Below are positions 2,967-64,000 of a stretch of DNA of 64,000 nt, in pieces. Made by a program: the position numbers and the translations under genes. How positions within the stretch are numbered: position 1 is the first letter of the stretch; each line of letters begins with the position of its first letter. This DNA is from an uncultured virus (IMG/VR IMGVR_UViG_3300021256_000060) (lineage: Duplodnaviria > Heunggongvirae > Uroviricota > Caudoviricetes): IMG/VR virus record IMGVR_UViG_3300021256_000060; one strand, given 5' to 3'. Below the pieces are notes generated by a model. That model ran no database searches, had not been told where the DNA came from, and worked only from the letters and a program-made list of their open reading frames with translations.

Positions 2967-3202
2967 TTATCCTACATTCTTATACTTAGCCTTCAAAACC
3001 TTGATTCTGTCTATCTGATTCTGATTATAACGACGTCTACCCATATGAATAAAGGATTCCAGATTAATTACAGTATCCTTAAACACATTTACGTCATTAT
3101 TAAACAGACCATCATTACGAGAGATACAGAATGCATTTCTCGGAGAGTAAACAGCTTCACATGCATTATCAAAGGCCTTATTGAGAAGCAACTTAATATT
3201 TA
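2967..3202 (-). CDS. non-virion RNA polymerase beta'-N subunit, exon 2
   Basis: After splicing reads ...DYDGDC-LNIKLLLNKAF...SPRNAFCISRNDGLFNND; resembles, from recall, the region after DYDGD in AR9 nvRNAP beta'-N. Confidence 0.85.
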
Positions 3203-3742
3203 ATATGAATAGGTAGAGACCATGATATTATCTCATCTCTTTCCCCTCATTCGAACGCAGCAAGCGACTTTCATCGCACTACGCTTTCCATCGAGTATTA
3301 TCCCGACTAGAGACCATTCCTCCATTCCCGTTACAGGAACTTCTTAGGTTCGATCTCCGCTTTTCAGCATAGGTTAAGATGCTTATCTCCATATGGTTTC
3401 GCCATCAATCTAAATCGACCTATACCTTTCTTTCGTTCAGATAGACCTATCATTACATACATACCCTTAGGTGCCTACTTTATCTATATATACCTAGATA
3501 GTACCTATAATACTATATGGGTGTTCTCAACTGCCACCTTACTAACCCACAATACATATAGATTTTAATAGTAGATTCGTGTCCCTCACCATAGATATCT
3601 TATTGACTCCCGGTTTGTTCAACCGACTTTACCGAGCTACTAACCCTGATCTTTACAATCAACGCTAGTCGGAGATTAGAGGAGATACTTCTAGGCGTTA
3701 CCCTATCATTTTATCTCTCGGTCTACCCACACAAAATCGCAC
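3203..3742 (-). mobile_element. ORF-less group II intron (540 nt)
   Basis: 5' GUGCG; D1 closing GGGUAGACC/GGUCUAUCU; D3-like GAAGUUCCUGUAACGGGAAUGGAG; D4 reduced to small hairpin; 34-nt D5 AAGCGUAGUGCGAUGAAAGUCGCUUGCUGCGUUC (3253-3286); D6 ending AU; removal restores the reading frame. Confidence 0.92.
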
Positions 3743-5096
3743 GGCAATCCCCATCATAATCAGCCGCCAATCCGCTAAGGACGAACTGGTCCAACGAAAG
3801 GACCGCACTGTCTGTATTGACTCCGACTACCCTCTTCCATACGATAGATTCGTAATGAATAGTAGGATTGCGGTTAATCAATACATGGATTTTATCCATC
3901 TTAATCAGGTTATTGAGAATATCTAATACCCTCTGATCAAGCTGCAATGTAGCATAGTACCACTTCTTATATGCCTCTGCATATGTGATATTATAACTAC
4001 TCTGTATGATATTGATCAATACTTGTTCTAAGAGCAATACGAGACCAGTATATGGTAACATAACCTCGTCTGATCTCAATCGACTATCCGGTACAATGAT
4101 GCTTCTCTCAGAGAATGCAGTACGTCCAGATATAGTAGAACGCATGATTCCTCTCTTATCTGCTAAAATGCGGATAATCTCATCAGAGAGTTCACTCAAC
4201 TTAACCTGCATATCCCATAGAATCTGATTCTGCAGTTTGGGATTCCTATAGATAGAGAGAGTATCATTATTGAGTTGAGCTCCTAATGATGCTAAGATAT
4301 TAAAGGTAGCATTAGTCTTCTCGAAAGTAAACCGTTTACCTTCTACCTTAGCAATACGAAGCTGAGTAGTATAGATAGGGATAGAATGAGAGAATACGCA
4401 ATCTCTATGCTGCATAATGAGATCATATACATCTTTCTTATTCTTTCTCTTCTTTAAGAAGTATGCTAGTATCTCATCAAACTTCTCATAAAAACCCATC
4501 ATACCAAGGCTCTCATATTTAGAGTCTAATTTACTCTTCTTCTTATATCTACGAGCATTCTTTCTCTTAAAGATTTTTCTATCATATGAACTCATGGGTT
4601 TACCATCAGCATCGAGTTCGATAGCTGGTTCTAATATAGACTCCAAGTTATCTTTTCCGATGATGGAGATGAGTTCTACATAGATAGCAGGATTGATTAT
4701 ATGATATTGATCCTTTAAGTGGATATACCCAAAGTAGGTGAAGTCATCACCTACTAATTTAGCGGGAGTTCCACAATAAGGACAGTAGAAGTTAGGATGG
4801 TCCATCACAGAATTAAATGCTCCTTGCAGATAACCACAAGCACATTTGTATCTATGAGAGAATGCTGCTTCATCTCCAAGCTGTCTGCCAAACTTAGTAG
4901 AGAAGATAGAGGTATCACTCTTCAAGGATTTTTGAAGAGGTTGCTTTGAATCGATAATGAATGCTTGCCCAACACTCATATCTTTCTCAAACTCATTATC
5001 AAGATTGAGTATAGACAGTTTAACGAAATAATCATATTCATTATCTCTAGGATAATGAATATTAAGCTTCACGTCTTTCAGGCTATTCTCATCCAT
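3743..5096 (-). CDS. non-virion RNA polymerase beta'-N subunit, exon 1
   Basis: Zn-binding CACG/CPYCG, beta' motifs GIMRSTISGRTAFSERSIIVP and INRNPTIH, catalytic AADYDGD; split beta' typical of AR9/phiKZ-like phages. Confidence 0.92.
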
Positions 5097-45213: not shown

Positions 45214-45630
45214 TCATACACGAATGACGTATTCTCCAGGACCATAAGATTCTAGGGATGCAAATATTGGTAGATAGCTATAATGAGAGATTCGATTTAG
45301 AACAAAGCATTGTTCTTCATCAGTCAATAGATGGCGATACGTATTAAATTGATTTAATACATAATGAGTCCATACTGATGCTAGATCTCTAAACTCACGT
45401 ACCTTATCACTACTATTAATAGTAGATAGGATATGAATAGCTCGATCTACTCCAATATCTATACCCTTAAGAATATACTGACTTCCTAATGTGAATCTAG
45501 ATAAACTATCATTACTGAACATACCAGCTCTTAATAGCTTAATCTTAATAGTGCTCAGCATGTTTAAATCATTTCTCATGATATCCGGAGTTTCATTAAC
45601 GTAAGGTAAGTTTGTATACAACGTACTCAT
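45214..45630 (-). CDS. hypothetical protein
   Basis: 138 aa, ATGA-coupled to rusA-like gene. Confidence 0.7.
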   Translation of the reverse strand: MSTLYTNLPYVNETPDIMRNDLNMLSTIKIKLLRAGMFSNDSLSRFTLGSQYILKGIDIGVDRAIHILSTINSSDKVREFRDLASVWTHYVLNQFNTYRHLLTDEEQCFVLNRISHYSYLPIFASLESYGPGEYVIRV

Positions 45631-46346
45631 TCCTTCCTGAAATAGGTTACGTTGTCCGCATTTTCTACTCTTTTTACTACTGAATCATACTGTATTCTGT
45701 TGTAGAGCATATTGAGGTATCTTAATGATATCTCAACTCTTGGTAGAATAGAATAGTATTTAGCCATACTAGATTCTATAACTAGAGCATCGTCTAGCCA
45801 TACATTACCATTATACATATCACTATACTTCTTCTCTAAGTTATCAAAATCTGGTTTGGTAATTGGTCTAATTATTCCCAATTCTGCCAAGTAAGTATCA
45901 ATCGCATTAAATTGACTAGGGGTGTGGATATATGCTTCGTAGTGTACAATACAAGGAGTATTAATCAGGTAGTCGGCCTCTAATAGTTCTTGTTCAGATA
46001 ATAACCGTTTCATAAAAGTTCTATCAGCATCACCAGTAATAGAATAAATCTGTATAAATCCAGGATTGGCTTTAGCTGCTGCCACGGCATTACTACGCTT
46101 TATATATCTTGCTCTTGGTCTTGGTGCTCCTTCTGGTTCTTCGTATAAAATTATTTTTAGCTCCTTAGAGAATCGTAATGCACCCATCATTTCGTTTCTC
46201 ATTTTAAAAATAGTATCGGCCTTGGCTGGAGTTAGGTGTAGATGCTCATACATCCAATCTAGCCTTTGTTGATAGTCTCTAGGGATCTCGCTATACTTTT
46301 TAGCATAGATCTCTTCTTTTTGTTTTCTTGATTTAGATACTGCCAT
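45627..46346 (-). CDS. rusA: RusA-family Holliday junction resolvase
   Basis: PRPR, KPDFDNLEK..SD...G.VWLDD..V, PRVEI motifs. Confidence 0.85.
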   Translation of the reverse strand: MAVSKSRKQKEEIYAKKYSEIPRDYQQRLDWMYEHLHLTPAKADTIFKMRNEMMGALRFSKELKIILYEEPEGAPRPRARYIKRSNAVAAAKANPGFIQIYSITGDADRTFMKRLLSEQELLEADYLINTPCIVHYEAYIHTPSQFNAIDTYLAELGIIRPITKPDFDNLEKKYSDMYNGNVWLDDALVIESSMAKYYSILPRVEISLRYLNMLYNRIQYDSVVKRVENADNVTYFRKE

Positions 46347-49119: not shown

Positions 49120-52100
49120 TTATTTAGGTTCTGATATCCAATCTAATGATTTTGCAATAGGAGTATAGGACTTGCCGTTCAGCTCAGACATATACCCACT
49201 ATTACCACCAAACACACTCATTCCAGGAACACTGGGAGTGGTTTGTTTAGTAGTTCCTTGTCCATTAGCAACGATAGCCTTAAGGATACCTTCTAATAGA
49301 CTATTGGTTTTCTTCTGTTCTTCTAGTAACTCAGTAAAGTTAGTAGGAGCTTCTGCTACCTTCTGGGTAGCTGTAGTTCTCACAGGAACTCTGCTTGCTC
49401 CAGTAACCTTGTTTACTGTTGTAGAAGTATTAGTAGTGTCTTCTTCACTAGTTCCGCTAGATTCATCTCCTATAATCATCGATGTATTAGACGTTTGACT
49501 CTTAGCTGTATTGCCAAGATTTATAGCCTCCTGCATAGATGCTCTAGTAGGATTGAAAATGTTAGCAATATTATTGAAGATTTGAGAGAATGGATCCATA
49601 GGTCTACCAGTCTTTGCTGTAACTTTGGCTTTCTCTCTTGGAGTTAGTTTCTTGGTATACCTCTTATCTTTAGATAGAATATCGATAGCTTGCTCTTTGG
49701 TATAACCTTGTTTGAGTAGATAATCTACATCGTTCTTTGTGTATGGTAAACCATTAGGACCTACTCCATATGGAGCAGTCTTGTCACCATCTTTTGAAGT
49801 TTTCTGAGTATACCTCTTATCTTTAGATAGAATATCGATAGCTTGCTCTTTGGTATAACCTTGTTTGAGTAAGTAATCAACATCATTCTTTGTGTATGGT
49901 AAACCATTAGGACCTACTCCATATGGAGCTTCGGTCTCAGTAACCTTGGCATTCCGATTAGCGCCAGAGAATATATCTCTTACAGTACCAGCAATCCTAT
50001 TGAACCATCCACCAATTCCTCTTTGCTTTTTGGCATCAGATTTTGAAGTTTTCTGAGTATACCTCTTATCTTTAGATAGAATATCGATAGCTTGCTCTTT
50101 GGTATAACCTTGTTTGAGTAGATAATCTACATCGTTCTTTGTGTATGGTAAACCATTAGGACCTACTCCATATGGTGCCTGAGTAGTAGATTCTTCTCTC
50201 TTACCACCAGAGAAGAAGTCTCTTACAGTACCCGCAATTCTATTGAACCATCCACCAATCCCTCTTTGCTTTTTGGCATCAGATTTTGGTTTGTCTTTAA
50301 CAGCTTCTTCCTTCTTCTGTTCTGCATTAGCATGATTTGGAGTAGGACCAGCCGCTTTCCCTAAGATTGTAGGATCAGAGAACTCTGTTGCCTTCTTCGC
50401 TTCTGGTTTGATAACCTGAGAAGGAGGAACAGGTTCTGCTTTTGGTACCGGAGGCACTACAGCAGCAGTCTTAACTGGTTCTTGTACAGGAGTAGCCTGA
50501 GCAGCTGGAGCTTCCTTGATGAAGGCCTGTCTTCTCATCTTAGTAAGAGTAGATTCATATACTCCATTATTGGTCGGATTAGCACTAGGAACTGCAGGTT
50601 CTGCTTTGAGAACTTGAGGAACAGCAGCAGGTGTTGCTGATTTATTAATAAATACCTGTTCTCTCATCTTAGCAAGATTCGACTTATATACTCCGTTATT
50701 CGTAGTATCAGATGTTGGAGTATTAGTAGCAGGAGATGCTGTCTGAGCTTGAGCTGCTGTACTAGCTGGTGCAATTGTAGGAGATACAGTAGTTCCAGGA
50801 AGGTTGCCAGTAGAGAATTTAGTATCTACGACACTAACTCCGTGCTGAGATAGAACCTGGGCTACTTTGCCAGCCAATTCTTTAGATTCTTGCTCTCCTT
50901 TAGGACCATGCTTAAAGAAGCCTTTCCATCTACCACCTTTAACGAAAGAACTATTAGAGAGAGTTACTCCGCATTGAGATTCTACGTCTCTAGTGATAGT
51001 TATTTTAGAAGCATCTCTAGGCATACCATCAGCAAAGATAGTGAATCCAAAGTATGCACCTCCACGGCCAAACTTACCTCTACCGTATTTTCCTTGTGGA
51101 TATTCATTAGAGCTCGGATCATCATAAGAATCAGCGTTATAATCATTAACGTGATAATTACCATTCTCAATCTCTTCTTGAACCCGTTCTGCAGAATCTG
51201 CCACCATGGAAGCACCATTTACGGCAACACCTAATGGATTCGTCATACCAGCAAGAGTCATTCCGGCACTAACTAGTGGGTCATCTAAAACAGTCTCTAC
51301 TACAGGACCAGCAACAGCCTTGATTCCATTCTTTGCTTGATCCCAAGCTCCTCTACCGTATTTAGCACGGCCATATTTTCCTTGTCCTTGACTTCTCAAA
51401 TACTGTACAGCTTCTGAGGTTGAGTAACCTTGGTTGACTAGATAATCGATATCATTCTTGCTAAATACAGTTCCGTTAGCATTGTTTTGCTTAACGAAAT
51501 CATGTTCTTGGCTATAAATATCTGCATTACCATTCTTATCAACTTTTCCTTCATCTCCTCCACTACTAGTAGCTACTGCATCTTCTTTCTTAGATTCTGC
51601 AGCCGTATTGGAAGAAGCTGGGGTAGCAGGATTAGTAGTCTGAGGAACTGAAGCATTCTTTACTCCACCACTAGATGCTTTCTTAACGATATCGTCAAGT
51701 TTAGAGTATAGATTAGCTCCTGGACAAGAAGTTTCGTTTACCTCTTTATGGCCAATAATATGTTTTCTATCTACTGGTATATTATATTTCTTACAAAGGT
51801 CTCTAATCAAATTGATGAGAGAACCTATTTGAGCTTCTGTAGGTTGATACTCTTCGAAAGCACCACCTACATGAATACCAATAGAATCACTATTAGAACC
51901 TTGGGCATGAGAACCAACCATTTCTTCAGGACGTCCACGTTCAATAGAACCGTCTTTCCTTATAACGAAATGGTACCCAATCCCTGACCATCCGTTCTTT
52001 TGATGCCAACCATGAATAGTTTTAGCATCTGGATCTGTTTTATCATCTCCAGGACCGGTATGGTGTACTATGATTCTATTAGTAGCACTTCTCTTTTCCA

Positions 52101-55100
52101 ATTCACCACTGAATGTGAGTCCAGTTTCTTTTACTCCAGCTAATGATGAACCAGCAGCTGCATTCGCTCCACCACTAGATCCACTATTACCAGAGCTATT
52201 AGGCGATCCGTATACGGCTCTCCAGATGGCACCTGCAGGACTGCTGGATATTTGTTTATCCAGTTCAGTTTTGAACCATCCCATCAGCCCAGCATCTTTC
52301 TTAGCGGATGATCCAGAAGAACCATTTGTACCTCCAGAGAAGCTACTGTCTGAGCTTACACCTTGACCTTCCTTATCATAGAATTCTCTAGCAAATACTG
52401 CTCTTCTTTGTTTCTTCTGAGCATCATCAGCCGAACGTTCGAACTGATCATGGAAGGTTATAGCAGCATCTTCAGGACTCTGGCTATCCATGGTAGCAAA
52501 CATATCCTTTACGTTACCATCTTTGCCAGACAACATATAGTCTATCTGAGTCTTCCAGTCAGAGTCTTGAGTACCTTGTGATTTTGCAAAGTCTTTCAGT
52601 CTCTGCTGTCTATCATCAGAAGTCCACTGTGCTAAGCCATATCCAGTAACGCCATCAACAGGACAATTGTCGGACCCGTTGCTTGGATCATGATTCTGAA
52701 GTCTATCTGAATAGAGTGAGGATTCTGCCATGAAGTTACCAAGAATACCTGCAGTCGTCTGATTAGACAAACCTTTAGATTTCATGTAAGTCCACAGCTT
52801 ACCACCGTCATTGCCAGTAGACTTTTCTCTACCATATTTTCCTTGACCAAAAGCATATGTTCTTTCGGCTTTAGTTTCTCCGAAATTAGTAGTGGGTTTA
52901 AGTTGAGCAGAGATATCCTTGATAGGATCCATAGAATTGGCCATAGCCAAATCTTGCATCATAGTAGAATCTTGAGAACCTCTGCCATACTTTCCTTGAC
53001 CAACTCCGGCATTGGAACTACCAGCATCAGCATTCATTTCTGCTTGTGTTCTAGTTGTTGCATCATTAGATACTACACTATTACCACTACCAGTAGCAAT
53101 GTATCCTTGTACGCTAGAATAGTGACCAGAAATGGAGTCACCATGAACAATCTTGTTCTTACTTGAAGAGTTACCCCAATATCCACCTTGACCATCTGCT
53201 ATTATAACATGGCCATGATCATTACAGATACATACATCGCCTTCAGCACCGCCTTGGGATGCATCCTTGAAGTATCCCTTATCTTTTGCCCACTGTTCAA
53301 GAGTAGGAACCCACATAAGAGTTGCTGCTTTAGTACTATCTACACTGGTTGGGATATGACTTGCTGCTGCCTTTACTTCTTCCATGATAGGACTGCAGTC
53401 TTCCATATAGTCACCCAGTTTATGACCAGCCTTCTTCAGATACCTCTTAACAAATTCGGTGCAGCCATTATTTCCGTAACCAGTAGTACCTTCCATTGAT
53501 TTAGCCCATTTACTTGCTTCAGCAATGTTTCCTCCACCAAATGAGCTATAAGGTCCGCTAACGGATGAAGATCCCGTTGAACCACCATTAGAACCGAATG
53601 CATCATTTCCGAATACATATCCTACCATTGATCCAGGGAGAAGTGCCTTTACAGCATCCCAGAATGCTCCAAGTAATCCCCCATTTCCTCCTCCTCTACT
53701 GCTTCCACTAGCATTTCCTCCTTTGGAACCTGATCCTCCAGTCATACTAAGAGGTGCAGCATCGCTAGGACGATTTTCTTGTAGTCTCTTTACAGCGTCT
53801 GGATCACCTTTAATAATACCTTCAATATTAGAAGCATATTGCCCTTCATCTGCAGTATAGTATCCACCTCTCTTAAGAGCGGCAGCCCATTCTGCAGGAG
53901 ATTTAGCGTCTAATAATCCTTCATCTTTATAACGAGGATAATACCAACTCATGTAGTTTACGAAAGATTGGTCATTATCGAAGAAGCTATGATGTCTATT
54001 ATCCTCACCAGTTACAGTCCAAGTGTAATTATCTTGGGTTCTTGGATTATTAAATCCTGCATCACCCTCGGCTGATTTAACACCACCATAGTTATGCTCT
54101 TTAGCCAGATCGGATTCAAAATGACCTGTCTCTAGACTCATCTGTGCCCAAATCAATTCTGGAGGTAATTTAGTATTCTTAGAGATCTCAATAGCAATCT
54201 CTTCTGGATTCATGAAGTCTTTACCACGGCCAAACCACCATGGATATTTTCCCTTACCCTTCATGAATGCTTTTCTTCTCATCTTAGTAAGATTAGAAGT
54301 GAATACACCTCTCTTATCTTTAGTACCTTTGCTAAGGGATACAGCATTGGTCATTCCATTAGAGATATCCTTAATTGGGTATTCTCTAACTTGGCTTTCC
54401 TCAGAATCATATACCTTAGCATATCCAGGTCTTGATCCTTTTTCGAACTGCTCATAATGCATACCAGGACCCCAAGGACCACCAGGCTTATTAGACTGAC
54501 CCATACCGATTACTTTCTTACCACTATTAATGGCATTAGCAAATTCGGATTTGTTTACGTCTTTAGCCTCATATCCTCTAGAGGTTGCTGCTTTATGAAT
54601 GAATCCAGGATCTACACCATCATCCTTGTGTTTAAACCTCAAGGATTCTTTTACAAGAGAACCGATTCGTTTACCAGAAGGATCTTGGCCTTCTAGACCA
54701 TTGAATGCATTCTCCAAAGAGTATGCAGCGCATGCTGAACTACTTACAGTTTCTTTAGAAGTATCTTGAGATGTATTGAATCTTTTGTTAGCGAGAGGGC
54801 CTACGTCCTGTCTAGCTATAGGTCTTTGATCTTTAGCTATAGGAGCAGATTCCTGAGCAGATTTGAACTCAGACTTGATTTTATCTTGAGCTGCTTGTTT
54901 AGCTTTGATTACAGTCAAGGAATCATTCTGTTTATCAATCTTATTGTACTCAGGTATTGATGCTGTCGGTTTAGGTGTTTGTTCTGCTGGTTTGGATTCT
55001 GCAATCTTGGCTTGAGCTTTAGCTTTCTCTTGAGCGGCTTGTTTAGCTTTGATTACAGCAATAGAATCGTTCTGTGGATCAATCTTATTGTAATCAGGTA

Positions 55101-58100
55101 CCGCTTTGGTCTGTTTAAATATGGGTTCTGCTACAGCAGGTTTTGATTCAGGTACTACTGGGGTAGGTTTAGATACTGGTTCTGGAGTAGTTGGCTTAGG
55201 TGTTTGCTCTTCTGCAACAGGTTTAGATTCTGCAATCTTATCTTCAGCTTTGGCTTTCTCTTGTGCAGCTTGCTTAGCTTTGATTACAGCAATAGAATCG
55301 TTCTGTGGATCAATCTTATTGTAATCAGGAATTTCTTCTCCTCTACCAAACTTACCATTACCGAACTTGCCACCGTGAGTATCTTTATTCTTATCATTAC
55401 CCCAGAAGCTATCCCATTTCTCACTGGCCCAGTCTAATCCACGTCTTACAAGAGACTTACCTTGAGGCTTGTCGTTTCCTTGCATCTTATTGACTGCATC
55501 TTCGCCAGCCTTCTTAGTAATAGCTACCTGTTCAGAAATGGATTTCTTATGCATTTCCTCATACTTCTTTTTATCGAAGTTAGGATCATCCTTGTGCTTC
55601 TCTGCGGTAGTCTTGACTCTCTGATCAATATCTTTTCTTACACTGTCAGAGATATTCTTATCCCAGTCTCCATCTTTACGATGAGCAGTCTGTTGCTGTT
55701 GCAGATAATCATTCTGCTTGGCTACGAGTTTATCGTCAGCCATATCTTTGGTGAGCTTATCATCCTTCTCTTTCTGCTTTCTGAGTTTGCGAAGATCTTC
55801 TGCACCAAAGTCGAATGCATCGCATACCTTCATAGCAATATCTACCCACGTTTTAGCAGGAACTAATCCAAATATAGGAGCTGCTGTGATTACGCCAAGG
55901 ATTGCGGCAAATGCCTTCATTCCTAAAGTAGCAGTACCAGGAGGGATACTGAGTATCTCTTCAGTATGAACCAAACCTTCATACACACCAGAAGCTACGA
56001 AAGCAGCTGTAAGTACCCAACCAATAACTGGGATGAATCTTGAAGCTTGTTGAGCAACCTTCTTCTTGACAGTCTCAAAGGTTTGTTTAGAAAGAATATG
56101 CTTCTCGAATGCATCACATAATACATTAATACCTTTCTTCCACTTATCGCCACCAGGAATATATTTAGCTGCTCCATCTCTAATATATCCTATTACTTCC
56201 TTGATCTTAGTTATAAGACCTTTATTCTCCGCCACTTCTTCAGCAGCCTTTGCTGCATCTTTAATGCCGGTTTTAGCAGTAGTTGCAATATTGGATGCTT
56301 TAGACGTTATTACATCTTTAGCGTCTTTGAAAGTCTTAGATGTTTTCTCCATGAAAGAAGTACTACTCTTTGCTGCATCTGCTGCAGCCTTCTCGCCAGC
56401 TTGTACTGCTTTTGTAGCATCCTTTGCTGTTTCAGCAGCTTTAGTAGCTGTCTTTCCAGCAGCTTTTTCTGCAGCACCAATAATACTCTTAGATTTATTA
56501 GTCAATTTAGAGATATCATTATTTAAGGTCTTCATCTCTGCATTGAGCTTCCTGGCCTTAGATTTAGATGTAGCAGGATCTTTGAGTTCTTTCTCTATTT
56601 CTGCTTTTCTAAGTTCTTTTGCTTTTATCTTTTCGGTAGCCTTATCTAGTTTATCAAGTTGCTCTGGAGAAATCTTGGCTCTAACGTCATCTGGTATAGA
56701 TGAAGGAGCAGCTCCTTTCTTTCTCCAATCCATATAAGTAGATACACCAGCGATACCGGTATCAATAACCATATCGGATACTGAGAAATCTCCTCCCATG
56801 GCCATACCGCCAGCTTGACCACCAACAACTGCACCTAGGATTCTGCTCTTCCAGCCTCCTCCTAATCTAGCACCTAGCATTTCGCCTGCTTTAGCACCAA
56901 CGATGTTACCACCGAGTTGCTTAATAGAATTCTTAGCTTCGTCCTCAGCACCTTCATCAGTGTTCATAATATAGCTTCCACCGATGACACCAGTTCCTAC
57001 AGCTGCTGCTTTGCCCCAAGTACCAAGGTGACTAGCAGCCTCTCCTACTTTACGAATTCCTTTAGCAATACCTTGCTTGGAGAATACTTTAATGCCTTCT
57101 TTTTCAGCAAAGTCTTGAGCTAATTTACGTTGAGCAGCTTCAGGAGACATACCTTTCTTAACTAGGTCCTTCACTCCCTTTTGGTACTCAGGTCTTGAAC
57201 TATATTTGTTAACTAAGTCTTGAACTGCATTATCTGCATATCTATTTGCTTTGTCTATACCCCAGTTAAAGGCTTTATTAGAAGCATACGTCAAACCTAC
57301 GTTCTTGGCAAACCCAAGACCAGCATCTGCTGCTCCTTCATAGTCTCCATCAGCGAATTTATATGCTGTAGCTAAACCGCCAGATACCAATGAATGTTTA
57401 AATGAACCCTCTGGAGCTTTTGTCCACAATCTAGCAGCCTTATCAGAAGCTACGCTGATAGCTAATGATCTTCCACCAGACTTGAGAGTATCCCCAGCTG
57501 ACGACAGAGTTTCGTCATTCTTAGTCCTAGCATTACTATTACCCTTTTCGTCTTCTCCAAGACGTTTGCCATGATTGAGTCGACGTACTCGTTCCAACCA
57601 ATTGAAAATTTCTTCAGGTTTCTTACCAGCTGCCATATAAGCATCGCACTGTGCTTGCTCTTTATATGATAGATCGCCGAACTTATCATACGCTTCAGGA
57701 TATGCTCTTATATTGAATAGAGTATCTCCCTTAATATGCTGAGCTCTCTCACTATTATCATATACTGACTTAACAGCAGAACCGATACCTAAGGCACCAG
57801 CTCCATATGCTAGAGCTTTACCTATCTTACCAAACTTTGGTAATCCTTTAACAATGGCATTGCCTACACCAGTAGTACCACCTTTTCTCCAGCCATTAAG
57901 ACCAGCCAAAGCTGCACCACCAGCAGTAATACCAAGAGTGGACAGAATGGGATGATCTTTGAAGGTCTCCCAAGCTTTTCCAAATGGAGTTAAGAAGTTA
58001 TCTACAGTTTTACCAATAAAGCCTTTCTTTTCGTAGTCCTTACCAGTAACGTCGTCGTAAATTCCAGATACAGATACTGAATCATCTTTTCTCTTACCTG

Positions 58101-61100
58101 GTTTGGTTTTTTGAGCTTCCTTCTTATCCTCGTTATCGGGTTTACTGTCACTAGAAGCTGCACTTGCCTCTGCTTTGGCATCATCATATAGATTATACCC
58201 TAAAAAGGCAGCAGCAATCGCAAGAACCTTTCCAGCTTTGGAACCAAGTATGGACTTGATGACACCTTTTACTAGACCACCAGATTTGGCTCCAGCCTTA
58301 GCACCTGCTTTTGCACCAGCTTTAGCAGTATCTTCAGCCGCTTCTGCTCCAAGCTTTCCAGCTAACTTGCCAAATGTATTTTTAATCGGACCTAGAACTG
58401 CTAAGAACAATGGGCCAATAAATGGTAGTGCTCCTAACGAATCTACAAGTCCTCCTAACACTTTAAAAGGCAATCCGGCTAATCCAAGTAGGCTGTCTAA
58501 TAAACCGCCTCCAGCAGCTTTTGCTGCTCCTTTAACCTTCTTACCTGCATTACCCAACTTATTGGAGATCTTTTCTAGAGCGGTTAGAGATCTTTCTTTT
58601 CTATCTATATCCGCCTGCTCCTTGGCATCTACCTCAGAGTTGTCTTTGGTATGTGCCGACATCATCCCACCATCTGTAGAGGATGTTGTGAAAGTCTTCG
58701 GTCCATATGCTGTTGGGATAATCATGGTTTCACCACGTTTGAGTGGTGCACTCATAGCCGAACCCATGACAGTATTGCCACTATGTATAGCTCCTATGGC
58801 AGCTCCTGCAGCCGTCGCTGCGTCTGAGGAAATACCACCAGCGGTGTCCTGTTCAGCATCTGCGCTGTTGGACTCGTCTTTCTTTTCTTTCTCTTTTTCT
58901 TCTTCGTCGTCATCTCCACCAAATAGAGACCCTAATAATGTGCCACCAAATAGACCTTTGGCTACACCTTTCCAACCACCTTTTTCAAATGCTTTTGCAC
59001 CTGTAGATATAGCTTTACCCCAAGCATGTTGAGGCATACCTTTAGCTTTTCTAAGCTCTTTACGTAGACTCCTCTTTTCTTTCTTAGAAAGATTAGGATC
59101 CTTTAATTTCTCTTCTAGTTCTGATATCTTTCCAGATACATCGTTTTCTTCTAGTTCCTTGGCTCGTTTTTGAGCACTTGTCATAGAGTCTTCAGCAAGC
59201 ATTTCTCTACTGCTGCCTATTAGTTCTTTGAATTTACTTAAGCCATCTTCGATATTTAATTCTTTATTATAGATAGCCTCAGCAATTTCATATGTTTCTT
59301 CAGGGTGATACATAGCTGCTATAATCATAGACTCTACATTATCACCGAGCATAGTTGATACGTTCTCGATTATTTTATCACCAATGGTCGCATTCCATGC
59401 TTGTCTAGCATACATTGCACCAAAATCGTTAAAGAATTGAGGAGATGTAGCAATAGCATAACCAGTTCTACCAGCTGCTGCTAGATTAGAACCTATCCTC
59501 ATTCTTCCAGTAGCTTTATCTGCTCCCCAGATTCCTAGATCTAGAGCCTTATTAGCAGCCCACTTAGATAACCCTAGAGCTTTCTTTCCTACGGTTTGAG
59601 CAGCACCAACAACTCCATTATATTTACCAGTAAGAGCACCAATCTCAGCATTAGTAGTACCATTAGTAATAGCATCGAATTCTAAACCACTCATACCACC
59701 TTGTTTATACTGATTCTTAATAGAATTACGATCTTCAGTACTCTTAGTAATACTATTCTGGAATGCATGATAGTTTGGATTCTTAGGATTACTATATTCA
59801 TCAACCCAACTGAAAGAACTATCCAATCCTGCCTTATAAGTAAGACCTTCTCTATGCTCACCTTCAGTCCACAGCTTCTGAATCTCATCAGCTATCATCT
59901 GTTGACCAATAGTGGTTACACTACCATCTTCAAGAGTAACTTGGGCAGCAGCGAACTTGATCATGTTCTGAGCAACAGCAGGTTCTAGATCTTTAAAGAT
60001 GGAGAAGTCTTTTACTGGAATTTGCATCTTAACAAATTCAACAGCAGTCTTGAACCCATCGTCATTCAACTCAGCAATAGTCTTATACTGATCTGGATCT
60101 ATCTGTAAACCAAGAATAGTGAGATCAGCTATTCTACTGAATGCCTGACCAGTCGGATCTAACTTAAATAGTTTATCGAAGTCTTCAACAATAGCAGTAT
60201 TGCCTCTCTCCAAGGCTTTATTGAGCTGAATAAATGATTCACCGAATTTATTACGATGCTTACTATTAAGCACATAATCTCCAGCTTCTTCTGTAAGTCC
60301 TTGGACTGTTTGGAAGGCATTTACTCCATGCAACTTGTCGATATTGGCATTATATTCTGCATTGGTTGATTCCTGGCCTCTTCTTAGACCCTCATCTAAA
60401 TATGCAGCACTCTTCTGTTGAGCATATTTGATACCTCTCATATCTTTTACTAAATCTAGAGACTTAGCAAACTTAGTAGGATTCTCTCCTCTAAGAGTAG
60501 CAGTAAGATAATTAAGAGCATCAGTGTTCTCGGCAGTAGCCTCCATTTCCTTGACCTTCAATTCCAAATCCTTTTCAGGATCGAACATTGAAGCATCCAT
60601 TACTCCGCCAGCCTTGGCTATATCTTCGGCATATCTACCTTTTACTTTGTCTCTATTAGCATTCTCATTCTCTAATAGTTCAGCAAGGTTTGAAAGCATC
60701 TTGATGAGATCATCTTCATCAATACTATTGTTGAAGTATTTCTCTCTTACCCTTTTAAGAGATTTTTTAACTACTTCAGAGTCTCCTTCTTCTCTCCATT
60801 TTCTTCCTTCTCTGATTCCAGCAAAGGACTCATTTGAAGATTTGAAAAGTTCCTCTAATTCTTTTCTATCCTGAATACTAAAGTTGGAATTCCTCATGAT
60901 ACGTTCGAGTTCATCACCAACATTTATTTTCTCACTGTCATCTCCACTTCTCAGTTTCTCAGCGAGATCCATAAGGTCAGAATGAACTAGAGTAGCATTT
61001 TCAGTATATTCAGGATTTTCCGTTATCTTACTAATAGTGCTTTGGAGATTAGAAAAGATCTCTCCCTCTTTTCTCTTACTAGCATTACCAGTTCCTTTAT

Positions 61101-64000
61101 CATAAAACTCGGCTAAAGCTCTAAGATTCTTGGCTTCATTAGTAACTTCATCACGTCCAAGATGCGAAATTACATCATAGCCAACTCCCATCTTATTATC
61201 TTTTATACCGCGTTCTTTTAACTCAGCAGACAGTTCGGCAGCTGATTTATCAGTGATTTCAGCATTTCCTAATTGAGCACTTCTTAATCTATTACCAAAT
61301 CCTTCAACTAAGCTAGCAACTCCACCTACAGCTCTACCTACTGTATTTTGTGCTACCCATTTACCGAATCCACCTGCTTTTCTTACACCACCAAAAGTGA
61401 AGTCTAAGATCTTCTCCATAGTAGATCCACCGGAGCCTCTTAGTACTCCTTCAATAGTATCTAGTACAGATTTAGATCCCTTTTTAAGAATATTCTTTAC
61501 TTCATCAGCTACTGGTTTGAGACCTCTTCCTAATGGTTTAGTAACGTCATCTCTAAACCACTTACCGAAATCCTTCTTCATCTTATCCATATTTTTCTTG
61601 AGAGGATTAGTAATATGACGTCTAATAGCACCAGCGAGGCCACCATGACGAACACCATTCTTATCCTTAGCACCAAGAAGGGTCTTCTTGAAGAGTTCAG
61701 TAGTAGATAGTAATCCTAGACCTGCTCCAAATACAGCATTTCCTAACAGACCGAATGGGCCTAAGAAGAATGTGGATAATACACCAGCGGCAATATTCGG
61801 GAAGGCCTTCTTGATAGCTTGCTTTCTATCCTTGTTCAGCAATCCACCCTTATCACCAAAGATGAATTTATTAGCTGATTCATTATTCTTGATATAGGAG
61901 CCAGCTATACCCATCATTAACCCACCAAGTGGACCAAATCCAGTTACAGCTCCTAGTAATGTACCGGCTATACCATACTTCTTAGCGTCAGGAACATACT
62001 TCTCTAGAGACTTAACAAACTTGGCAGAGATTAGACCATTCTCTTTTCTCTCACCAGTCTTATTACCATTAGCATCTACAATTTCTTCACCAAACATATA
62101 ATCCATAAAGGATTTATTGTTAGATAAGAGAGATACAGCAGCACCAGCAGCTGCACCAAATAAAGGACCACCTAATGGGAATACAGTACCTAAGAGAGCA
62201 CCAGCCATACCACCCTTCATCAGCTCAGGGGTATTATGAATAATATACTTCTTAGTCTCCTCTAAAGCTTTAGCAGGATCAGTACCTGTAGCTTGTAGAG
62301 CAAACTGCTGCATACCATTAGCAATACCAGTCTGACGTGAGTAGTCTTGGTTAAGCATCTCTTCATTAGAATCAAGCTTACCCTCATACCCTCCAGCTCT
62401 TATTGCTTTTTCAGCAAATCTCTGAAGATTTGGATTGTTTCTTATAGCAGGAGAATGCCATACGTATTGAAGAGCATTATTAAGCATTTCCTTATCATCA
62501 GGAGTAAGGTCTAGCTTATTTATAAACCCTCCAGCTTTACCTCCAGCATAATCTGCTACAAGATCGATAGCTAGATTAGGATCTAATCCATATTTCTGCA
62601 ATAGACTTTGAACAGGACTAATAGCACCAGCCAATTCATCTGGGGAGATCTTCTTAAATAAGTACGATACAAGATTCTCTTTACCCTCTGCAAATCCAGG
62701 AAGGTTCTTACTATATCCATCTCCATTAGATCCACTTATTCTACTAGTGATTCTATTCCGTATTCTATTCTCATTCTGATAATCAGCCATAGGATTAGCA
62801 CTCATTCGGCTAGGATTCCAAGGATTTTGATCAGATGGAATAACTACAGAATCATCATCAATAGTAGTAACACCACTCTTAGTGACATTAGTTGTTCCAC
62901 TACCATCAGAATTGAATACAGCTTCTCCCTTAGATACTATTGCCGGAAATTGGCCAAATGCTCTACCAGGGATATTAGATTCTCCTTCAGCTTCAGGATT
63001 TTCTTCCTTATTCTGCTGATTGAATTTACCTTCTTTAATATCAGTATATGTACCCTTTATTGAGTTCTTTACATCATCAAGTATAGACTTAGCTGAATTT
63101 TTTGCATTGTTTCCAAAGAAGGATAGCTTATCTTTAGCCTTAGCAGCGAAGTCATCAATATCTAAGTTAAAATTGTCTTTAACAAAGCCTTTAGCTTGTC
63201 CCCACCACTTACCTTTATTATCATTAAGCTTATTAGCAATATCAGATACGGTCTCATTAAGAGTAAGACCAGCTTTATTCATCTCATACATGACTTTGCC
63301 AAAGAATCCCTTTACAGGTCTTCCTTGTGCGTCTAACTCATCAGTTTCGCGACCAAATAAGAGGTCATACATCATGTTATCAACAGAGCTTATGATACCA
63401 GTCATCATAGCTCTAGGAGATGCCAATAGCTTATTGATATTAGCGCTAATAACGCCCATTTTATTTCCAAGGGTGCCTGCAGCTGCTAACTGCTTCAAGA
63501 AACTATCTTTAGGATTAGCTCCATAGCTTTTCAATTTCTGGTTCAGTTCTTTTTCACTAAGATCAGAACCCAAAATAGAATCAGCTATGCTATGTTCCAT
63601 GTCATAATTGTTTTCTCTGGCTTCTTTTTGAGATTTATCATATAAACGAGATAGCTCTACTCTATATTTATTAGCAGCATCTTCATCGTTCATGATTCTA
63701 CCAATATCACCAGTCTGCATATCTAATCTAGTATTATTTTGGATACCGTATCTTTTACCTTCAGATACCCAATATGCATCGTTCATGACATTGGCGCCTT
63801 CGGCAGTATAATGACGTTCAAGAATCATTCTTTCTAGATCTGTCAAACCATCAGGGTCTGGATCATCATCGGACCCGCCAGATTCTCCGTCATTTCCTTC
63901 TCCAGAGTTTCCTCCGTCTCCGCCGCCATTATTAGGACCACTATATCTTTTTCCCTTTTTGTGTTTGTATTTTCTAGGCTGCCCTAGATATCTACTATCT
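49120..64000 (-). CDS. giant tape-measure-like virion protein with multiple cell-wall hydrolase domains (5' end outside window, >4950 aa)
   Basis: Frame open past 63846 to window end; G/A-rich helical TMP-like N-region; C39-like, glucosaminidase, CHAP/NlpC-like, phage tail lysozyme and Amidase_2 motifs in C-region. Confidence 0.85.
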   Translation of the reverse strand, partial: DSRYLGQPRKYKHKKGKRYSGPNNGGGDGGNSGEGNDGESGGSDDDPDPDGLTDLERMILERHYTAEGANVMNDAYWVSEGKRYGIQNNTRLDMQTGDIGRIMNDEDAANKYRVELSRLYDKSQKEARENNYDMEHSIADSILGSDLSEKELNQKLKSYGANPKDSFLKQLAAAGTLGNKMGVISANINKLLASPRAMMTGIISSVDNMMYDLLFGRETDELDAQGRPVKGFFGKVMYEMNKAGLTLNETVSDIANKLNDNKGKWWGQAKGFVKDNFNLDIDDFAAKAKDKLSFFGNNAKNSAKSILDDVKNSIKGTYTDIKEGKFNQQNKEENPEAEGESNIPGRAFGQFPAIVSKGEAVFNSDGSGTTNVTKSGVTTIDDDSVVIPSDQNPWNPSRMSANPMADYQNENRIRNRITSRISGSNGDGYSKNLPGFAEGKENLVSYLFKKISPDELAGAISPVQSLLQKYGLDPNLAIDLVADYAGGKAGGFINKLDLTPDDKEMLNNALQYVWHSPAIRNNPNLQRFAEKAIRAGGYEGKLDSNEEMLNQDYSRQTGIANGMQQFALQATGTDPAKALEETKKYIIHNTPELMKGGMAGALLGTVFPLGGPLFGAAAGAAVSLLSNNKSFMDYMFGEEIVDANGNKTGERKENGLISAKFVKSLEKYVPDAKKYGIAGTLLGAVTGFGPLGGLMMGIAGSYIKNNESANKFIFGDKGGLLNKDRKQAIKKAFPNIAAGVLSTFFLGPFGLLGNAVFGAGLGLLSTTELFKKTLLGAKDKNGVRHGGLAGAIRRHITNPLKKNMDKMKKDFGKWFRDDVTKPLGRGLKPVADEVKNILKKGSKSVLDTIEGVLRGSGGSTMEKILDFTFGGVRKAGGFGKWVAQNTVGRAVGGVASLVEGFGNRLRSAQLGNAEITDKSAAELSAELKERGIKDNKMGVGYDVISHLGRDEVTNEAKNLRALAEFYDKGTGNASKRKEGEIFSNLQSTISKITENPEYTENATLVHSDLMDLAEKLRSGDDSEKINVGDELERIMRNSNFSIQDRKELEELFKSSNESFAGIREGRKWREEGDSEVVKKSLKRVREKYFNNSIDEDDLIKMLSNLAELLENENANRDKVKGRYAEDIAKAGGVMDASMFDPEKDLELKVKEMEATAENTDALNYLTATLRGENPTKFAKSLDLVKDMRGIKYAQQKSAAYLDEGLRRGQESTNAEYNANIDKLHGVNAFQTVQGLTEEAGDYVLNSKHRNKFGESFIQLNKALERGNTAIVEDFDKLFKLDPTGQAFSRIADLTILGLQIDPDQYKTIAELNDDGFKTAVEFVKMQIPVKDFSIFKDLEPAVAQNMIKFAAAQVTLEDGSVTTIGQQMIADEIQKLWTEGEHREGLTYKAGLDSSFSWVDEYSNPKNPNYHAFQNSITKSTEDRNSIKNQYKQGGMSGLEFDAITNGTTNAEIGALTGKYNGVVGAAQTVGKKALGLSKWAANKALDLGIWGADKATGRMRIGSNLAAAGRTGYAIATSPQFFNDFGAMYARQAWNATIGDKIIENVSTMLGDNVESMIIAAMYHPEETYEIAEAIYNKELNIEDGLSKFKELIGSSREMLAEDSMTSAQKRAKELEENDVSGKISELEEKLKDPNLSKKEKRSLRKELRKAKGMPQHAWGKAISTGAKAFEKGGWKGVAKGLFGGTLLGSLFGGDDDEEEKEKEKKDESNSADAEQDTAGGISSDAATAAGAAIGAIHSGNTVMGSAMSAPLKRGETMIIPTAYGPKTFTTSSTDGGMMSAHTKDNSEVDAKEQADIDRKERSLTALEKISNKLGNAGKKVKGAAKAAGGGLLDSLLGLAGLPFKVLGGLVDSLGALPFIGPLFLAVLGPIKNTFGKLAGKLGAEAAEDTAKAGAKAGAKAGAKSGGLVKGVIKSILGSKAGKVLAIAAAFLGYNLYDDAKAEASAASSDSKPDNEDKKEAQKTKPGKRKDDSVSVSGIYDDVTGKDYEKKGFIGKTVDNFLTPFGKAWETFKDHPILSTLGITAGGAALAGLNGWRKGGTTGVGNAIVKGLPKFGKIGKALAYGAGALGIGSAVKSVYDNSERAQHIKGDTLFNIRAYPEAYDKFGDLSYKEQAQCDAYMAAGKKPEEIFNWLERVRRLNHGKRLGEDEKGNSNARTKNDETLSSAGDTLKSGGRSLAISVASDKAARLWTKAPEGSFKHSLVSGGLATAYKFADGDYEGAADAGLGFAKNVGLTYASNKAFNWGIDKANRYADNAVQDLVNKYSSRPEYQKGVKDLVKKGMSPEAAQRKLAQDFAEKEGIKVFSKQGIAKGIRKVGEAASHLGTWGKAAAVGTGVIGGSYIMNTDEGAEDEAKNSIKQLGGNIVGAKAGEMLGARLGGGWKSRILGAVVGGQAGGMAMGGDFSVSDMVIDTGIAGVSTYMDWRKKGAAPSSIPDDVRAKISPEQLDKLDKATEKIKAKELRKAEIEKELKDPATSKSKARKLNAEMKTLNNDISKLTNKSKSIIGAAEKAAGKTATKAAETAKDATKAVQAGEKAAADAAKSSTSFMEKTSKTFKDAKDVITSKASNIATTAKTGIKDAAKAAEEVAENKGLITKIKEVIGYIRDGAAKYIPGGDKWKKGINVLCDAFEKHILSKQTFETVKKKVAQQASRFIPVIGWVLTAAFVASGVYEGLVHTEEILSIPPGTATLGMKAFAAILGVITAAPIFGLVPAKTWVDIAMKVCDAFDFGAEDLRKLRKQKEKDDKLTKDMADDKLVAKQNDYLQQQQTAHRKDGDWDKNISDSVRKDIDQRVKTTAEKHKDDPNFDKKKYEEMHKKSISEQVAITKKAGEDAVNKMQGNDKPQGKSLVRRGLDWASEKWDSFWGNDKNKDTHGGKFGNGKFGRGEEIPDYNKIDPQNDSIAVIKAKQAAQEKAKAEDKIAESKPVAEEQTPKPTTPEPVSKPTPVVPESKPAVAEPIFKQTKAVPDYNKIDPQNDSIAVIKAKQAAQEKAKAQAKIAESKPAEQTPKPTASIPEYNKIDKQNDSLTVIKAKQAAQDKIKSEFKSAQESAPIAKDQRPIARQDVGPLANKRFNTSQDTSKETVSSSACAAYSLENAFNGLEGQDPSGKRIGSLVKESLRFKHKDDGVDPGFIHKAATSRGYEAKDVNKSEFANAINSGKKVIGMGQSNKPGGPWGPGMHYEQFEKGSRPGYAKVYDSEESQVREYPIKDISNGMTNAVSLSKGTKDKRGVFTSNLTKMRRKAFMKGKGKYPWWFGRGKDFMNPEEIAIEISKNTKLPPELIWAQMSLETGHFESDLAKEHNYGGVKSAEGDAGFNNPRTQDNYTWTVTGEDNRHHSFFDNDQSFVNYMSWYYPRYKDEGLLDAKSPAEWAAALKRGGYYTADEGQYASNIEGIIKGDPDAVKRLQENRPSDAAPLSMTGGSGSKGGNASGSSRGGGNGGLLGAFWDAVKALLPGSMVGYVFGNDAFGSNGGSTGSSSVSGPYSSFGGGNIAEASKWAKSMEGTTGYGNNGCTEFVKRYLKKAGHKLGDYMEDCSPIMEEVKAAASHIPTSVDSTKAATLMWVPTLEQWAKDKGYFKDASQGGAEGDVCICNDHGHVIIADGQGGYWGNSSSKNKIVHGDSISGHYSSVQGYIATGSGNSVVSNDATTRTQAEMNADAGSSNAGVGQGKYGRGSQDSTMMQDLAMANSMDPIKDISAQLKPTTNFGETKAERTYAFGQGKYGREKSTGNDGGKLWTYMKSKGLSNQTTAGILGNFMAESSLYSDRLQNHDPSNGSDNCPVDGVTGYGLAQWTSDDRQQRLKDFAKSQGTQDSDWKTQIDYMLSGKDGNVKDMFATMDSQSPEDAAITFHDQFERSADDAQKKQRRAVFAREFYDKEGQGVSSDSSFSGGTNGSSGSSAKKDAGLMGWFKTELDKQISSSPAGAIWRAVYGSPNSSGNSGSSGGANAAAGSSLAGVKETGLTFSGELEKRSATNRIIVHHTGPGDDKTDPDAKTIHGWHQKNGWSGIGYHFVIRKDGSIERGRPEEMVGSHAQGSNSDSIGIHVGGAFEEYQPTEAQIGSLINLIRDLCKKYNIPVDRKHIIGHKEVNETSCPGANLYSKLDDIVKKASSGGVKNASVPQTTNPATPASSNTAAESKKEDAVATSSGGDEGKVDKNGNADIYSQEHDFVKQNNANGTVFSKNDIDYLVNQGYSTSEAVQYLRSQGQGKYGRAKYGRGAWDQAKNGIKAVAGPVVETVLDDPLVSAGMTLAGMTNPLGVAVNGASMVADSAERVQEEIENGNYHVNDYNADSYDDPSSNEYPQGKYGRGKFGRGGAYFGFTIFADGMPRDASKITITRDVESQCGVTLSNSSFVKGGRWKGFFKHGPKGEQESKELAGKVAQVLSQHGVSVVDTKFSTGNLPGTTVSPTIAPASTAAQAQTASPATNTPTSDTTNNGVYKSNLAKMREQVFINKSATPAAVPQVLKAEPAVPSANPTNNGVYESTLTKMRRQAFIKEAPAAQATPVQEPVKTAAVVPPVPKAEPVPPSQVIKPEAKKATEFSDPTILGKAAGPTPNHANAEQKKEEAVKDKPKSDAKKQRGIGGWFNRIAGTVRDFFSGGKREESTTQAPYGVGPNGLPYTKNDVDYLLKQGYTKEQAIDILSKDKRYTQKTSKSDAKKQRGIGGWFNRIAGTVRDIFSGANRNAKVTETEAPYGVGPNGLPYTKNDVDYLLKQGYTKEQAIDILSKDKRYTQKTSKDGDKTAPYGVGPNGLPYTKNDVDYLLKQGYTKEQAIDILSKDKRYTKKLTPREKAKVTAKTGRPMDPFSQIFNNIANIFNPTRASMQEAINLGNTAKSQTSNTSMIIGDESSGTSEEDTTNTSTTVNKVTGASRVPVRTTATQKVAEAPTNFTELLEEQKKTNSLLEGILKAIVANGQGTTKQTTPSVPGMSVFGGNSGYMSELNGKSYTPIAKSLDWISEPK
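49649..50285 (-). repeat. near-identical intragenic repeats
   Basis: 3x APYGVGPNGLPYTKNDVDYLLKQGYTKEQAIDILSKDKRYT and 2x KSDAKKQRGIGGWFNRIAGTVRD.FSG, nearly identical at DNA level. Confidence 0.9.
54880..55330 (-). repeat. 3x P(D/E)YNKID.QNDS..VIKAKQAAQ repeat
   Basis: Visible in translation and DNA. Confidence 0.85.

Follow-up and report, generated by a model that had tools for sequence, protein, structure and literature searches.

The 64,000-nucleotide stretch of DNA analysed here (the window), derived from an uncultured virus of the Caudoviricetes (IMG/VR record IMGVR_UViG_3300021256_000060), carries on its minus strand, at 3742..3203, a compact, ORF-less group II intron of the IIB type, which interrupts the gene of the N-terminal part of a non-virion RNA polymerase (RNAP) β′ subunit (β′-N) and is very probably a selfish element rather than a regulator. 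The intron is 540 nt long; it starts with the 5′ splice-site consensus GUGCG, read directly at 3738..3742 immediately after the exon-1 bases GAT GGG GAT TGC C (last base 3743), and ends in ...CUACCUAUUCAUAU at 3203, exon 2 opening at 3202. Both ends (GUGCG at the 5′ side and AU at 3204..3203) conform to the 5′ GUGYG / 3′ AY rule, and all six published phage introns that were checked have a GTRYG start. The covariance-model check proposed in the earlier note on this DNA was carried out with Rfam at the gathering threshold over the whole 64-kb window, and it returned exactly two matches, both on the minus strand and in the correct order. RF02004 (group-II-D1D4-5) covers the 5′ part of D1 at 3599..3734 with 91.4 bits (cut-off 34.5, E 2.6e-18, full model 1-201), and RF00029 (D5-D6) covers 3288..3203 with 43.1 bits (E 3.9e-05), narrowly above its cut-off of 40; the end of the RF00029 model coincides exactly with the predicted 3′ splice site. 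Two such matches at this place are far beyond chance and, together with the canonical ends, the D5/D6 features and an EBS1 pairing of six out of six bases, confirm what the earlier note had read from the letters, namely that 3203..3742 is a group II intron.

The minimum-free-energy (MFE) fold of the 540 nt displays a six-domain architecture, in which D1 spans intron positions 4-312 and is followed on the minus strand by D2 (intron 317-377, window 3366..3426), D3 (385-434, 3309..3358) and D4 (436-453, 3290..3307). While D1 and D5-D6 are backed by the covariance models, D2, D3 and D4 are predictions from the fold. D4 is a hairpin of 18 nt without an ORF, and no ORF of at least 40 aa is found on the minus strand inside the intron; the RT/maturase in D4 that marks a mobile group II retroelement is thus absent, as is any nuclease ORF inside the window copy, and the earlier description of D4 as a small hairpin devoid of RT or maturase holds. 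D5, delimited by the RF00029 alignment (457-490, 3253..3286, minus strand), contains an AGC triad, a GAAA loop and a 2-nt UU bulge; D6, delimited by the family alignment (493-538, 3205..3250, minus strand), contains the predicted branch-point adenosine, bulged at 3210, that is intron position 533 and 8 nt from the 3′ end, where it lies unpaired within the motif UACCUAU. In the D5-D6 family alignment (n=8: the window, two IMG/VR relatives, AR9, PALS_2 and three LPJP1 introns), compensatory changes on both sides are seen in 15 of the 29 predicted pairs (7 of 14 for D5 taken by itself), and UACCUAU, with its unpaired A, is invariant in all eight sequences. The window copy nevertheless has an A.C basal pair in D5 and a UU bulge, the bulge of its seven relatives being A and then C or U; these two peculiarities may weaken catalysis. 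In the first D1 hairpin the Rfam alignment places a 4-nt bulge, AGAA (consensus GAAA), whose correspondence to the diagnostic IIB bulge is uncertain; in the text of Merk, Jones and Eddy (NAR 2025, PMC12350094), the hallmark of class B is a 4-nt AARC bulge at λ/ε′. RF02004 itself is also matched by 9 of the 16 class-B rows in Table S1 of these authors.

Recognition of the 5′ exon offers a line of support that is independent of the covariance models, since these are blind to the pairing between EBS1 and the exon. EBS1 (GGCAGU, intron 208-213, window 3530..3535, minus strand) is complementary at six of six positions to IBS1 (AUUGCC), the last six nucleotides of exon 1, and it is the sole 6/6 complement of AUUGCC within the first 400 nt of the intron. 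It sits in a recognisable loop context (...GGGUUAGUAA-NNN-EBS1-..UGAAC..ACCC), and the homologous loops of AR9/Internexus, PALS_2 and the LPJP1 introns a, b and c are each complementary, again 6/6, to their own exon; the EBS1 loop thus co-varies with differing exon sequences at five other insertion sites. The assignment of EBS2 is tentative: the candidate CUAUUA (intron 172-177, window 3566..3571, minus strand) could form six base pairs, including two G-U pairs, with the exon bases UGAUGG at -14..-9, and several alternatives are of similar quality. This candidate lies just 3′ of a conserved ACGAA, a place at which, judged by eye, the AR9, PALS_2 and LPJP1c introns also show complementarity to their exons. 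Another segment, CCCAU (intron 222-226), had been considered for EBS2 before it and was rejected, as it constitutes the 3′ strand of the stem closing the EBS1 loop.

Exon 1 (3743..5096, minus strand; 451 codons plus 1 nt, ending ...DYDGDC) was delimited from its ORF and from Pfam and phage matches. It matches PF00623 (RNA_pol_Rpb1_2, E 7.1e-09), and its best named relatives are g274 of phage phiR1-37 (30% identity, E 3e-38) and g270 of AR9, the latter annotated as the non-virion RNAP β′ N-terminal subunit. As the earlier note had proposed, the host gene is thus assigned, with the support of these protein matches, to the AR9 g270-like non-virion RNAP β′-N subunits. According to the available text of a published account (PMC7598289), non-virion RNAP genes are early genes whose product transcribes the late genes in AR9 and phiKZ. 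A 457-codon ORF (5096..3726, minus strand) runs across ...LSGLAADYDGDC and meets a stop six codons further; joining 3743 to 3202 instead yields a 529-aa protein containing ...AADYDGDCLNIKLLLNKAFDNACEAVYSPRNAFCISRNDG..., which around the site reads ...DYDGD-C-LNIKLLLNKAFDNACEAVYSPRNAFCISRNDG...FKDTVINL..., with the intron positioned one codon past the Mg-binding DYDGD motif. Exon 2 (2967..3202, minus strand), as defined by its translation and by alignment with homologues, contributes 78 codons and the stop (LNIKLLLNKAF...KNVG). The uninterrupted phiR1-37 g274 (DYDGDVLNF...) and gp018 of Bacillus phage BpSp (DFDGDVLNI...) pass through the same place and share a G.FN.D...KD tail.

The junction was assessed by sorting 105 database homologues of exon 1 according to how far they reach beyond D[YFW]DGD. 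Sixty-four of them continue for at least 50 residues, eight of these with exactly CLN, and exon 2 aligns with the C-terminal 50-104 residues of the 64 uninterrupted proteins; another 38 stop elsewhere. The remaining three end in DGD-CRA, which is the read-through of UGC C|GU GCG: they are the window's own product and the proteins P0005 and P0007 (68-69% identity), two proteins that, judging from their last residues, end as if GUGCG came next at the identical site. Among the IMG/VR relatives, 44 of 79 are continuous across the site according to a manual reading of the table. The boundaries and the in-frame join DYDGDC-LNIKLL that had been deduced from the window are therefore borne out by the 64 uninterrupted homologues and by an intron-less allele described below, and the outcome that would have spoken against them, homologues ending naturally after DYDGD with the downstream part as a separate gene, is not what is seen, as the homologues extend 50-104 residues further, and this part aligns with exon 2. 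In jumbo phages, β′-like RNAP subunits are described as naturally split after the DPBB domain (PMC7598289, in the part of the text available), which fits an end of β′-N some 50-100 residues past the motif and not at the motif. Nucleotide searches gave less: megablast found no match for the locus among 50,697 phage records, and tblastn of exon 2 by itself against phages found none at E <= 0.01, the homology of the exon-2 tail being visible only via the protein database. What the earlier note had called an orphan ORF (2967-3191, 74 aa, TTG start) is the tail of exon 2, and no AGGAGG-like ribosome-binding site lies 5′ of its TTG.

An allele without the intron is present in DNA run X2. A 771-nt contig of this run matches window positions 3173-3202, then the seven bases that end exon 1, then codons for G, D and F; it reads ...FDGDC codons joined directly to 3202, and as its junction falls exactly between 3202 and 3743 it represents an intron-less allele. 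Its depth is 7.2 compared with 33-35 for the intron-bearing contigs, so the intron-bearing allele is dominant in this run, which may be the window's own source sample. The upstream element of the X2 contig without the group II intron ends in an A run. RNA-library contigs from three libraries of two studies (X9, X17 and X11) fall on the intron, at 3246-3565, 3501-3721 and 3307-3565; these assembled contigs cover no exon and bridge no junction, and since contigs give no information on level, strand or ends, and may stem from carried-over DNA, they are at most a weak hint that intron RNA exists.

The nearest record to the window, the sister phage G001 (266,420 bp, rated 100% complete), has 48% of the sampled 31-mers in common with it and carries the intron at the identical site, with 537 of 540 nucleotides identical. 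Exon 1 and exon 2, by comparison, are identical at 1270 of 1337 and 228 of 236 positions (Fisher p 4e-07 relative to the intron); the two phages thus share an intron that is 99.4% identical between exons that are 95-97% identical. The difference of about 5% in the exons is nearly all synonymous, exon 1 showing one amino-acid change in 445. Such near-identity of the intron would mean either that the ribozyme is very tightly constrained or that the intron has recently moved laterally. In the flanks the differences begin at -8 and +47, and no long co-conversion tract is therefore visible around the group II intron. A search for related loci with a single protein returned only G001; a degenerate junction pattern gave 34 viral and at least 120 metagenome stretches, and among the matches listed (154 loci) the G001 copy alone resembles the intron or the protein.

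In vivo, most group II introns depend on the assistance of a protein. The search for a group II RT/maturase elsewhere in the genome, which the earlier note had recommended, came back empty: no RT/maturase Pfam match (E <= 0.001) is found among the 55 window ORFs of at least 90 aa, which cover 64 kb of the phage, and the complete genome of G001 has zero matches to RVT_1 and zero to GIIM, nor does it hold a second group II intron. As neither the intron nor the sister genome provides a maturase, splicing would be either autonomous or aided by host factors. In the proposed pathway, base pairing between EBS1 (3535..3530) and the six terminal bases of exon 1 would hold the 5′ splice site, probably with the help of EBS2, and the 2′-OH of the bulged D6 adenosine at 3210 would attack this site in the first of two transesterifications; ligation of the exons would then restore the codon C|TA and the 529-aa subunit, while RNA left unspliced would give a 457-aa product without the conserved 78-aa tail.

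The insertion site is a hot spot that the group II intron shares with group I introns. In G001 a further insertion, of 1,590 bp, has its 3′ end within the first Asp codon of DYDGD, 16 nt upstream of the 5′ splice site of the group II intron, and encodes a 336-aa HNH endonuclease (phrog_59, E 9.5e-31). Its core is similar by nhmmer both to ORF-less insertions at the same site in loci L015-L017 and to Rfam-validated group I introns in L045 and L052; Rfam itself detects none in G001, whether at E <= 0.1 or at 0.01, and the insertion is called group I because of the nhmmer similarity alone to the validated introns of its relatives. The 16-nt micro-exon left between the two elements holds all of IBS1 and the candidate IBS2. 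The site occurs in four states: empty of both introns in many relatives, with group II alone in the window, with both in G001, and with a group-I-like end but no group II in X2. Truncations of the homologues cluster at three places, 18 right after the first Asp, three inside D.DG and eight near LINRNP. Rfam finds ten group I matches in eight loci, and zero group II matches, among 17 interrupted relatives, so that group II is a rare occupant of the site.

The G001 insertion (L008 2172-3761, or about 174671-176260 of G001:C1, minus strand) lacks canonical group I ends: the exon apparently ends ...GAC and the insertion ...CCUAAAA, with neither a U at -1 nor a terminal G, and some 30 nt close to each of its ends make up an imperfect direct repeat (CCUAAUU..GGCGCG.GAGCCUAAA); normal U|...G| ends are present in the related L017 intron, which is ORF-less. 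Nine of the 67 differences between the exon-1 sequences of the window and G001 fall within 34 nt (L008 3770-3805, window 3768-3801), a cluster which adjoins the group I insertion on its upstream side and resembles the co-conversion tract that an arriving group I intron would leave. The conserved LINRNP block is a second hot spot for interruption of the same gene, where eight database homologues stop (P0072, P0073, P0083, P0086, P0088, P0090, P0093 and P0097). The β′-N gene of several IMG/VR relatives, among loci L039-L059, contains two or three group I introns, L052 giving three RF00028 matches.

Relatives of the intron are found in other genomic settings. L103, identified by nhmmer (E 5e-22), has an intron region at 561-2007 on the minus strand, which scores 116 bits with RF02004 and 65 bits with RF00029, and its D4 loop accommodates an ORF for a 273-aa GIY-YIG homing endonuclease (phrog_5123, E 8.5e-12); the nhmmer alignment breaks between intron positions 440 and 447, that is, in the D4 loop of the window copy. 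Pfam returned nothing useful for the HNH and GIY-YIG ORFs, both of which were named by PHROGs. Another relative without an ORF, L113, lies on a contig of 240 kb. At the 5′ ends of L103, L113 and L118, small hairpins and no obvious GUGYG are seen where the Rfam model start predicts one. A word search for D5 in bacterial genomes yielded one full-length relative, on a contig of a Clostridia MAG: this ORF-less copy of about 750 nt (L315 1147-1892, minus strand) apparently interrupts, as judged by eye, a phage tail-like gene. The contig is possibly a prophage, which gives a lead, limited to host range, that the intron family may circulate among phages of Firmicutes.

The ORF-less copy may be an immobile relic that is inherited vertically and owes its near-identity in the two phages to purifying selection on the ribozyme alone, and we rate this account somewhat below an even chance. 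It is consistent with the absence of any RT, maturase or nuclease from the intron and of RT or maturase from the sister genome, with an intron carried by only two lineages with accessible DNA, and with the 48% of common 31-mers, which correspond to an estimated genome identity of about 97.7% and make the 99.4% of the intron less extreme. However, 3 differences in 540 nt, loops included, amount to far less divergence than the roughly 5%, nearly all of it synonymous, in the flanking exons; one relative has a GIY-YIG nuclease gene in D4, and two database proteins at 68-69% identity end in DGD-CRA, as if GUGCG followed at the identical site. That an intron encoding no protein continues to move among co-circulating jumbo phages by means of borrowed machinery is in our view unlikely, though it deserves attention. 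Two routes could be envisaged for such movement: retrohoming with a host-supplied reverse transcriptase, which would fit a tract of high identity ending near the splice sites, or co-conversion, in which the group II intron would hitch-hike on the HNH group I intron that lies 16 nt upstream in G001. If this were true, it would follow that a 540-nt ribozyme splices efficiently in vivo without a dedicated maturase and constitutes an unusually small natural self-sufficient IIB intron.

The earlier note had further suggested that dependence on splicing could gate the switch from early to late transcription. In this reading, slow or factor-dependent splicing would time the appearance of the non-virion RNAP; the interrupted gene does encode the catalytic subunit of the non-virion RNAP, which in AR9 and phiKZ is responsible for late transcription and is itself early-encoded (PMC7598289, in the part available), and splicing could be rate-limiting as a maturase is found neither in cis nor in the sister genome. 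The idea has found no specific support, and the patchy presence of the intron among close relatives argues against it: the gene is uninterrupted here in 44 of the 79 relatives from IMG/VR and in 64 of the 105 homologues from the database, an allele without the group II intron co-occurs in X2, related phages have group I introns at neighbouring codons instead, and close relatives of the intron sit in unrelated genes, one of them with a homing nuclease, which is the signature of a mobile parasite. A regulatory gate is thus highly improbable. We give hardly any credence to a dead intron, that is, a truncated β′-N with a separate 74-aa tail or a defective copy of the gene, even though the unusual UU bulge and mismatched basal pair of D5, the RF00029 score just above its cut-off, the existence of the TTG-initiated ORF 2967-3191 and the natural splitting of jumbo-phage RNAP subunits at other places (PMC7598289, same text) could be read that way. 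No ribosome-binding site precedes the TTG, the break would come one residue past the catalytic motif and would cut a block which 64 homologues have in one piece, the intron is not decaying, given 3 differences in 540 nt where the exons differ by about 5%, and the intron-bearing allele predominates in the DNA run (33-35 against 7.2). Patchy presence, a hot spot that group I introns also occupy, and relatives with a nuclease together argue for a selfish intron at a conserved site.

Only 9 of the 55 window ORFs scanned have a Pfam match (E <= 0.001). A single 4,908-aa ORF occupies 49123-63846 on the minus strand; its C-terminal third contains glucosaminidase, phage tail lysozyme and amidase_2 domains, and it presumably encodes a giant virion or tail-associated cell-wall hydrolase. 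A 239-aa ORF at 45630-46346, also on the minus strand, has a RusA Holliday-junction resolvase domain (E 7e-13).

As a cleanly delimited example of a very small, ORF-less group II intron beside the catalytic Asp triad of an essential phage polymerase, with natural intron-plus and intron-minus alleles, the locus offers a natural system for ORF-less group II splicing in infected cells, for the spread of such introns and for the competition or cooperation of two intron classes at one target; it leaves knowledge of phage transcription control unchanged. Canonical mobile bacterial group II introns such as Ll.LtrB carry an RT/maturase in D4. The window intron shares with them the six-domain ribozyme, the EBS/IBS recognition of the 5′ exon and the bulged branch-point A, and it differs in that it encodes no protein, there being no RT/maturase in the window or in the sister genome.

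The nearer comparison is with phages, in which the earlier note had held group II introns to be rare. This view is outdated: Merk et al. report, in the text available (PMC12350094), 20 curated phage group II introns, 16 of them class IIB and six ORF-less, along with group II matches in 9,229 IMG/VR contigs. They describe there, for AR9-like jumbo phages, IIB introns that lack an ORF and interrupt RNAP genes and other core genes, as well as an endonuclease-bearing group II intron in the virion β′ gene of AR9/PBS1; their Table S2 lists the RF02004 match of the G001 copy, at 91.4 bits, without further description. By its sequence features, the window intron is a member of this published AR9-type kind of phage IIB intron, and the kind is therefore already known. 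Relative to the text and Table S1 of Merk et al. (PMC12350094), the new elements would be the host gene and codon, the size of 540 nt, the pairing of a group I with a group II intron 16 nt apart, and the near-identity of the intron across diverged exons; the relative with a GIY-YIG nuclease gene in D4 is also new. No other paper on group II introns in the β′-N gene was found in the open-access literature.

Among the named phage introns, those of Bacillus phage Internexus (594 nt), Staphylococcus phage PALS_2 (580 nt) and Listeria phage LPJP1 (690, 671 and 625 nt), all from Table S1 (PMC12350094), resemble the window intron in their RF02004 match, GTRYG...AT ends, UACCUAU motif in D6 and EBS1 loop context, and are likewise ORF-less introns of jumbo phages with a multisubunit RNAP. 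The window intron differs from them by its place in the non-virion β′-N gene, one codon past DYDGD; it is shorter than all six ORF-less introns of that table and comes from an uncultured animal-gut phage with about 30% protein identity to phiR1-37 and AR9. The intron in g270 of AR9, known here from the joined CDS and the enclosed HNH gene only, also interrupts β′-N in the catalytic motif, its exon 1 ending ...DYDG and its exon 2 beginning DVLNII, but it is about 1 kb long, contains the HNH endonuclease g271 and lies two codons upstream of the window site. The closest named relative is the intron of the AR9/PBS1 virion β′ gene (NC_031039, 120447-121998): in comparison with the window copy it is longer (1552 nt), has a nuclease ORF, a CGC triad and a GUAUG start, and resides in the gene of the virion enzyme, while it matches RF02004, has the same D6 and is 75% identical over D5-D6.
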